A stretch of 21,319 nt of DNA, from IMG/VR virus record IMGVR_UViG_3300025659_000030. One strand, written 5' to 3'. The notes under the pieces are model-generated. The model did no database searches and was not told the DNA's origin. It saw nothing but the letters and a program-made list of their open reading frames with translations. The number at the start of each line of letters is the position of its first letter. Position 1 is the stretch's first letter. Positions 14,591-15,022 of the stretch are shown piece after piece. This DNA is from a virus. A program made the position numbers and the translations under genes.

Positions 14591-15022
14591 TAGTGGAGCC
14601 GGGCGGAATCGAACCGCCGTGTTCTCTGTTTTCTTCGTAAAGTCATTCACAACTTAGTTAATTTCTATTAGTAGCAATTAACAAACAACTATGTGGATTT
14701 CTTTTGCACAGAACATATCCAGTAACTGACATTTTATTTTTATTCTCTAAATATAAAAAGAGAGTGTGTTTAACTTCTTTTATACTCGGGTGTTAAACAA
14801 CCCAAGAACTCATGCCGCTAAAGCGTAAGTTGATTGGTAATCTGAAGTAGGTTCAACATAATTGTCAAATCCCATTTCTGAATTAGCTAAATGCCAATCC
14901 ACTACCAAACCGTCTAGTGAATTATCACCATTTGAGTTTGTGAGTCTGTTGTAACAAGTCGTACTCAAACTTGTGTTGCACTCTATCGTCAAATAACATG
15001 AATCGAAACCAATTTCGGCCCC
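14591..15022 (-). ncRNA. ssrA: tmRNA (transfer-messenger RNA), one-piece, about 430 nt
   Basis: 5' GGGGCCG pairs with 3' CGGCUCC-A, giving the G3-U70 alanine identity pair. D-loop-like AAAUUGGUUUCGA; T-arm GGCGG-UUCGAUU-CCGCC; helix 2 UGUUAUUUG/CAGAGAACA and AGAGU/ACUUU. pk1 ACAAGU/ACUUGU + UGAGU/ACUCA; pk2 CUUGGGU/ACCCGAG + UGUUUAAC/GUUAAACA; pk4-like GUUAAUU/AAUUAAC. Internal frame ends YALAA-stop. Confidence 0.97.
14810..14929 (-). other. tmRNA tag reading frame: (A)GDNSLDGLVVDWHLANSEMGFDNYVEPTSDYQSTYALAA* (39 encoded aa)
   Basis: Predicted resume codon GGU at 14929, 11 nt after pk1 with A at -4. The frame is open to UGA at 14812-14810, immediately before pk2. The C-terminus YALAA is the canonical ssrA degron. 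Confidence 0.8.

Follow-up and report, generated by a model that had tools for sequence, protein, structure and literature searches.

Why should a phage carry a transfer-messenger RNA (tmRNA) whose tag reading frame has 39 codons? The question is raised by nucleotides 14591-15022 of a 21,319-nucleotide stretch of DNA (hereafter the window, meaning the whole stretch that was analysed) from the IMG/VR virus record IMGVR_UViG_3300025659_000030. Tag lengths range from 8 to 35 residues (PMC8012679), the commonest length being 10 residues (PMC11915505), so that the present tag is roughly four times as long as usual. The gene, its frame, the features of its resume site and selection at the level of the peptide can be read from the sequences compared here, and it is highly probable that the element is a real tmRNA with a translated and selected long tag. 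It is very likely, too, that what the phage appends to unfinished proteins is not a plain degradation signal alone.

The one-piece tmRNA gene (ssrA; 432 nt; minus strand, as are all window features given below) matches the Rfam model RF00023 over its full length (model positions 1-374, 56.0 bits, E 9e-20; gathering score 47), while homologues on other contigs reach 82-103 bits and nhmmer recovers homologues at 152 loci. The tRNA-like domain has a 7-bp acceptor stem, the G3-U70 pair of alanine identity and a T-arm with a loop of the GUUCGAnUC type. The 5' element of the RNA is UGGUUUCGA, and the 5' strand of the acceptor stem, GGGGCCG (15016-15022), contains the G3 that pairs with U70; the pairs of this stem covary, with G3-U invariant in 17 of 17 sequences. 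The T-arm (GGCGG/UUCGAUU/CCGCC), recognised by sequence and covariation, lies together with the acceptor 3' strand CGGCUCC and the discriminator A at 14591-14618. As the discriminator is followed by CUA, the CCA end is not fully encoded; the tmRNAs of relatives end in CCACAA. Helix 2, running from the tRNA-like domain to the pseudoknot ring, comprises about 23 pairs, many of them changed on both sides among the 17 sequences. A brute-force search for H-type pseudoknots located pseudoknot 1 (PK1; nt 49-82 of the RNA, 14941-14974), formed by ACAAGUU/GACUUGU and UGAGU/ACUCA, with compensating variants in relatives (AGAGU/ACUCU, GAGAU/GUCUC and UGGGUC/GACCCA). The helix 5 hairpin (14807-14831), which holds the stop codon in its 3' strand, has eight pairs, one of them covarying (AU in 8, UG in 6, UA in 2), and adjoins pseudoknot 2 (PK2; 14768-14806), where the stem CUUGGGU/ACCCGAG covaries and the loop GUUUAAC pairs with GUUAAAC, loop and partner changing together in alignment A1 (GUCUAAC/GUUAGAC, GUUCAAC/GUUGAAC). 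Across the 17 homologues, compensatory changes are found in the acceptor stem, the T-arm, helix 2, helix 5 and stem 1 of PK2. The region of pseudoknots 3 and 4 (PK3 and PK4) varies in length and has a low posterior probability in the Rfam alignment, one covarying hairpin being present there towards the 3' side (columns 370-409). A preliminary description of this DNA had called the tmRNA structurally complete; its coordinates proved exact and the core elements stand, but PK3 and PK4 are not clearly resolved. Judged by these features, the element is a phage-borne and structurally sound tmRNA.

ARAGORN, with which tmRNAs were called in phage surveys (PMC9004378, PMC7162821), reported no tmRNA in the window or in the whole 54-kb contig, even with lowered thresholds (-ps); the two programs by which the gene was to be checked thus disagree, the Rfam model matching it end to end. 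The excess over the typical tmRNA length is explained by 29 extra codons (87 nt), so the earlier claim that the extra length lies almost entirely in the tag frame holds for this 432-nt gene. Compared to SsrA of E. coli (tag ANDENYALAA), the phage RNA has in common the tRNA-like domain, helix 2, PK1, the 11-nt spacer with an A at -4, a tag frame with a non-polar, Ala-rich end, the stop in helix 5 and PK2. It departs from standard tmRNAs in encoding 39 residues rather than 10, in the motif upstream in the tag and the helix within the frame described below, in the incompletely encoded CCA, and in being phage-carried, between protein genes.

Where translation resumes decides how long the tag is. 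The tag frame (39 codons, nt 94-210; 14813-14929) lies open between PK1 and PK2, encodes GDNSLDGLVVDWHLANSEMGFDNYVEPTSDYQSTYALAA, exactly the peptide first written down, and ends with YALAA followed by a TGA stop (14810-14812) inside the helix 5 hairpin, as in standard tmRNAs. A single-stranded spacer of 11 nt, CAAACUCAAAU (14930-14940), precedes it; the spacer has the length of that in E. coli and an A at -4 (position 14933) in the place of A86, which in E. coli sets the frame four nucleotides downstream (PMC2481249). An A at -4 is present in 12 of the 12 most frequent hexamers at -6 to -1, tallied in 62 family members. In the Rfam alignment the consensus resume codon falls on GGU at nt 94, the resume context AAUU GGC GA is the same in two relatives with a 9-residue tag (L003 and L004), and the coding signature begins at this very codon. 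These four lines (spacer with A at -4, Rfam, context in relatives and coding signature) agree that translation would resume at GGU, nt 94. Resumption further downstream, named in the preliminary description as an outcome that would overturn the long tag, would give a tag of 11-24 residues and leave the 5' part of the frame conserved only as RNA. Tags of 11-24 residues are indeed called by ARAGORN in six relatives, and RNA pairing does involve codons 1-4 and 7-10. However, the starts that ARAGORN chooses are inconsistent among close homologues, lie within the variable region and have no conserved context, for which reason these short tags are treated as heuristic artefacts; the coding signature spans codons 1-15; and the A at -4 and the distance of 11-13 nt from PK1 fit the upstream start only. 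With resume-site features that follow the canonical rules at nt 94, a downstream start is considered extremely improbable.

That the long frame matters as a peptide is indicated by its relatives. Homologous tmRNAs of 406-441 nt lie directly upstream of a 496-aa gene in relatives at 62-86% identity; these loci were gathered through that downstream gene without regard to the tag (the neighbour-gene set), and the same long frame is found in all of them. Together with two pattern scans of IMG/VR, one by the tag motif and one, blind to the tag, by the PK2 pattern, they amount to 152 loci carrying 97 distinct tags of 34-43 codons, among which all insertions and deletions are multiples of three and no frameshift or internal stop was found in the tag frame. 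In the 14 distinct tags of the neighbour-gene set, the first 15 codons have 3, 2 and 12 variable columns at codon positions 1, 2 and 3, and the ratio of non-synonymous to synonymous polymorphism (pN/pS) in these codons is 0.20 in the tag frame, while the two shifted frames give 2.1 and 1.3. Within the tag, TTA, CTA and TTG replace one another as leucine codons, and synonymous changes occur at Leu, Asp and Ala codons within the motif. Purifying selection on the long frame as a peptide is thereby, on the evidence of the alignments, strongly supported. This bears out the suggestion that the extension is selected, together with the two comparisons proposed for it: the aligned homologues vary mainly at third positions, and in the tag frame only, and the 5' part of the frame is free of stops and frameshifts.

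What is conserved is a linear motif, L-x-G-L-x-[IV]-D-W-H-L-A (codons 5-15; 14885-14917), of which L5, G7, L8, D11, W12, H13, L14 and A15 are invariant (alignment A2) and which belongs to a family core G-[DE]-x-S-L-x-G-L-x-[IV]-D-W-H-L-A. The tag-blind PK2 sampling added conservative variants only (DWHMA, DWHFA, DWQFA, DWHLT and DWHLF), leaving a near-invariant core GLx[IV]DW[HQ][LMF][ATF] when that set is included. An invariant block of 11 residues in a peptide that structure prediction renders as disordered (predicted local distance difference test, pLDDT, 56) is what one expects of a short linear motif with a conserved binding partner. The tag as a whole is strongly acidic, with a mean of 6.9 Asp plus Glu against 0.5 Lys plus Arg, and in the window it lacks Lys and Arg; its middle part, likewise acidic, varies in both sequence and length.

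Part of the frame is also structured as RNA. Nucleotides 113-122 (codons 7-10; 14901-14910) pair with nucleotides 182-191 (codons 30-33; 14832-14841), 98.7% of cells being paired over 17 sequences as compared to 24-44% when the partner is slid, and one pair covaries (A-U in 7, C-G in 6), with a change of the encoded residue in either strand. Codons 1 and 4 (GGC, UCG) can likewise pair through their third bases, both of which are changed in the window (GGU, UCA). From these pairings the long frame seems to fold back on itself, keeping the mRNA-like domain compact, and some fixed third positions are attributable to the in-frame helix. The helix does not explain why the D-W-H-L-A block is invariant, with only synonymous or conservative changes in it. 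The same observations bear on the idea that the extension is mainly a spacer, the length and disorder of which aid engagement of folded, truncated proteins by a protease, and that the motif is kept incidentally, for example for RNA structure. The acidic middle, varying in length and sequence, and the existence of a helix within the frame agree with this idea, as do long tags of unrelated sequence in other large phages (24 residues in a 288-kb phage; about 36 by eye in LR756508). However, eight invariant residues are superfluous for a spacer, and synonymous changes at Leu, Asp and Ala combined with conservative replacements only (L to M or F, H to Q) point to a constraint on the peptide. A mere spacer role is therefore quite unlikely.

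The C-terminal end is held less strictly than the motif. It is mostly YAYA or YAYAA, drifting to YANA, YASA, HVYA and VYAS, and has a small non-polar terminus in 96 of the 97 distinct tags. The preliminary description stated that the LAA end read by ClpX is retained; this is correct for the window alone, as LAA ends only one of the 97 distinct tags, against a consensus of YAYA or YAYAA in the family. In the window, the terminal YALAA (14813-14827) is a degron end like that of short tags, resembling the 9-residue tags GEYQYMAAA (L003 and L004) and ADYGYAAAA (ssrA genes of metagenome-assembled genomes, MAGs). At two loci (L244:5156-5584 and L252:6538-6966) the tag stop TAA has become CAA, which adds 10 codons for a total of 49 and an end in NTRT.

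The comparison of the two ends gives room to the main rival of a two-signal degron, namely that the long tag is translated while its motif is non-degradative: it would mark rescued polypeptides or send them elsewhere, occupy or block a host adaptor or protease as a decoy, or affect the ribosome while still a nascent chain, and the end of the tag would only be left over from its ancestor. This would be consistent with a motif stricter than the C-terminal end, with an end once lost by a stop-to-CAA change, and with a tmRNA that travels with neither a protease nor an adaptor gene. On the other hand, 96 of the 97 distinct tags keep a small non-polar terminus like that of degradation tags, and nothing points to another function. 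A non-degradative role is accordingly judged unlikely, though it is clearly less improbable than the other alternatives considered here.

The reading preferred here is that of a two-signal degron delivered by a working tmRNA, a statement that as a whole is held to be somewhat better than evenly supported. The tmRNA would be transcribed together with its neighbours, RNase P would cut its 5' end, and its 3' end would be trimmed and completed to CCA; alanine charging would proceed via G3-U70, and, together with SmpB and EF-Tu of the host, the RNA would be taken into stalled host ribosomes. Translation, resuming at GGU (nt 94), would then add Ala and 39 encoded residues, giving a tag of three parts: the LxGLx[IV]DWHLA motif near the start, an acidic linker of variable length, and the non-polar C-terminal end (YALAA; YAYA(A) in the family). 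The C-terminus would engage a protease of the ClpXP type, while the upstream motif would be the docking place of another, highly conserved protein, which could be an adaptor or provide a further site on a protease. Here we infer the expression, the processing, the use of host SmpB and the binding target of the motif. For the single proposition that the motif docks an adaptor or a protease and thereby promotes proteolysis, the chances are put at slightly short of even, and a re-engineered trans-translation, as first suggested, is retained as a hypothesis.

Some points weigh against this two-signal degron. Recognition by ClpX is assumed, since the ends found in the family (YAYA, HVYA, YANA) are not the classic LAA. 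The conservation is partly at the RNA level, the in-frame helix and the resume-codon hairpin constraining GGC, TCG, GGG-TTG and CAA-CCA. Finally, the search for a partner of the motif in phage contigs gave none: in five related contigs, 47-79% complete, neither SmpB, Lon (Lon_C) nor SspB (PF04386) was found, nor any Clp-type unfoldase, an absence that is weak evidence because all contigs searched are incomplete.

The preliminary description had proposed a phage adaptor or unfoldase as the docking partner, which these results do not favour. ClpP was found in one of six contigs searched, in the replication module, where the ClpP-family gene (116 bits; L234:1498-2127, contig G003) lies between a clamp-loader gene and a methylase-like gene. 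The window itself encodes a classic-clade AAA+ ATPase (332 aa; 16908-17906) with an unassigned 130-aa N-terminal region and best partial matches to the ATPase modules of FtsH, CDC48 and PAN; it occurs in only four related loci and was dropped as a candidate partner, not being found in five other long-tag contigs. AAA_2 matches, considered as ClpX or ClpA, were instead MoxR/CobS/GvpN-like AAA_5 ATPases beside a CobT-like gene (L263:1096-2292, L264:1090-2334 and L262:1126-2280; in G002 the gene adjoins a weak CobT-like match). As no phage candidate emerged, the motif probably has its partner among the proteins of the host. Among longer proteins, the motif was met only in open reading frame (ORF) calls that overlie homologous tmRNAs, three of which read the TGA stop of the ORF upstream as Trp, and no relatives of the tag were detected among real proteins. 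A likeness of LDGLVIDWHL to the C-terminal Lon degron of SulA was considered and abandoned, as the binding of Sul20 is driven by its last two residues (Y19, H20).

How does such a tag relate to known systems? The extended tag of Mycoplasma has co-evolved with Lon and contains several protease determinants, according to work cited in PMC11986505 (Gur & Sauer 2008; Ge & Karzai 2009). Tags of Mycoplasma and Mesoplasma and those of the phage family are alike in being long, in having upstream determinants thought to add protease recognition, and in placing aromatic and hydrophobic residues in an acidic or polar context. They differ in that no sequence similarity exists, that Mycoplasma tags are shorter, and that theirs stem from the only tmRNA of the host whereas the phage gene is an extra copy; agreement with a Lon-type extended tag is thus confined to length and to aromatic and hydrophobic content. 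Mycoplasma and Mesoplasma are not known to possess ClpXP. With the SspB-binding half of the proteobacterial tag the phage tag would share its logic, one signal upstream for an adaptor and one at the C-terminus for a protease. However, the motif has no relation to AANDENY, its end lies about 20-27 residues from the C-terminus, and, as noted, PF04386 is absent from the five phage contigs, so that on the phage side nothing assigns the tag to the SspB type. Phage tmRNAs are known from the mycobacteriophage Bxz1 group, Bacillus phage G, Melnitz and huge phages, in all about 2.3% of sequenced phages (PMC4131195, PMC9004378, PMC7162821). They likewise occur without a phage SmpB nearby, but the tmRNA of the OM43 phage Melnitz is permuted, consists of two pieces and follows a riboswitch while the present one is in one piece, and no conserved tag motif is described in the phage tmRNA literature compared.

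The source is an uncultured large myovirus. The IMG/VR record has 54,292 bases with about 32% G+C and is 20% complete according to CheckV, related contigs point to genomes of about 185-270 kb, and its genes include those for a baseplate wedge protein, a tape-measure-like protein, a DNA ligase and other phage functions. By the baseplate wedge protein, even the closest cultured relatives are distant, namely Microcystis phage Mel-JY01 (48% identity) and Flavobacterium phage immuto (41%). Neither the tmRNA nor the tag had a match among deposited phage genomes (INPHARED; blastn, megablast and tblastn of the tag), and a relative of 169 kb that is 93% complete has no tmRNA. In the two relatives with the 9-residue tag (L003:603-954 and L004:1899-2250; neighbouring gene 73% identical) the long-tag tmRNA is missing, and about 1.7 kb further upstream there is instead a 352-nt tmRNA with the tag GEYQYMAAA. 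In a complete phage genome of 288,673 bp with terminal repeats (G009), a 375-nt tmRNA (L230:1501-1875) encodes a 24-residue tag, AEEKSSFTFADAMAFVGADLAVAA, and adjoins tRNA genes, not the methylase-like gene. The uncultured huge phage LR756508.1 (484 kb) has a 447-nt tmRNA (L226:1501-1944) with a frame of about 36 residues by eye (GVNNADYES...RKPAAV), for which ARAGORN calls an 8-residue tag. As tags of 24 and about 36 residues occur in such distant relatives, long tags of unrelated sequence may recur in large phages.

An equally long tag in the host's own ssrA would have made the phage tag unexceptional, as the preliminary description pointed out; no bacterial ssrA with this tag, and no bacterial chromosome carrying the long tag, was found among one genome each of 185,579 prokaryote species. 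The motif pattern had 22 matches in these genomes, about 35 being expected by chance on a rough estimate, and three of the 22 are homologues of the tmRNA, on contigs of 0.7, 2.6 and 7.5 kb in small MAGs. All three MAGs have, besides, a canonical ssrA (113-175 bits), whose 9-residue tag is ADYGYAAAA in two of them and ANKQFALAA in the other. The loci (L205, L209 and L211) are short phage contigs binned into three GTDB MAGs, 'bacterium TMED198' among them, one with tRNA-Gly, tRNA-Cys and tRNA-Ala; they are either contaminants of the bins or a pointer to the host. In the first two, the flanks have 33% G+C, like the phage, which hints weakly at the lineage of these MAGs as a candidate host, and the short tag of this lineage resembles the last ten residues of the phage tag.

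The neighbourhood of the tmRNA raises one further possibility. Twelve nucleotides after the tmRNA starts the downstream gene (496 aa; 13088-14578), with a weakly N6/N4 methylase-like C-terminus, which has 195 relatives in IMG/VR and is present also in phages that lack this tmRNA. Close by on the other side of the cassette, upstream, lies a full-length gene of the IMP dehydrogenase/GMP reductase family (15238-16446; Pfam IMPDH, 350 bits), which is common to 70 related loci; as a probe for related loci this neighbour found none. Abutting the 5' end of the tmRNA is an acidic micro-ORF of 52 aa (15029-15187; see also L012:3409-3567 and L025:3253-3399). It is linked to the tmRNA, its family occupying the same position at 83 of 113 loci, while some ORF ends there at 103 of 113. 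The micro-proteins have 45-58 aa (median 49.5), a median net charge of -14 and the consensus L..L.EA.E..DWDLV.E.IE.L, followed by an acidic tail ending in EDW. The stop codon is placed 4-11 nt upstream of the tmRNA or, for 18 of the 52 distinct proteins, inside the acceptor stem at tmRNA nt 6-8, so that RNase P cleavage would leave the mRNA of the micro-ORF without a stop or nearly so. In some relatives (L005, L097, L114 and L192) a cold-shock-domain protein (MNTGTVKWFD...) replaces the micro-ORF and ends 7-9 nt before the tmRNA.

Such an arrangement would allow the micro-ORF to be a built-in substrate: RNase P cleavage would remove its stop or leave it no more than about 11 nt from the new 3' end, and the micro-protein would be tagged by the adjoining tmRNA to give a protein of two parts. 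Ribosomes with as many as about nine nucleotides beyond the P site are still accepted by trans-translation (PMC8012679), which together with the abutting position and the placement of the stops speaks for this idea. However, the C-terminal Trp is kept even in those variants whose Trp codon straddles the cleavage site, from which the full micro-ORF is taken to be translated; phage genes are normally packed tightly; at some loci the place is taken by a cold-shock gene or a different ORF; and the relation between the frames of micro-ORF and tag is random (15:13:13). The idea is consequently seen as very improbable. Only marginally better is the prospect that micro-ORF and tmRNA form a programmed two-part gene, the micro-protein being a dedicated substrate for the 40-residue tag, which we consider highly unlikely; were it true, trans-translation would build a specific fusion protein and not only clear debris. 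In a milder form of this prospect, the invariant LxGLxIDWHLA motif would direct all rescued polypeptides to a host factor that is not a protease. A readthrough fusion of micro-ORF and tag was also considered, the two being in frame in the window with one stop between them, and was rejected, the random frame relation across the family marking this as a coincidence. A complex prediction for micro-protein and tag scored 0.00 and counts neither way.

The long-tag tmRNA, then, is a variant of a known system that many uncultured phages possess and that a commonly used tool annotates wrongly. Long-tag tmRNAs may be under-counted in phage surveys, since ARAGORN misses the gene in the window and shortens the tags of its relatives. 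While tmRNA tags are usually viewed as short, simple degrons, at least 152 loci of uncultured phages have tags of 34-43 codons, and the added part is not filler, as it contains a linear motif kept more strictly than the degron end. This implies a binding partner in a core pathway of proteostasis or translation, for which the motif is a concrete peptide to be used as bait, and a route by which a phage would alter the fate of rescued proteins.

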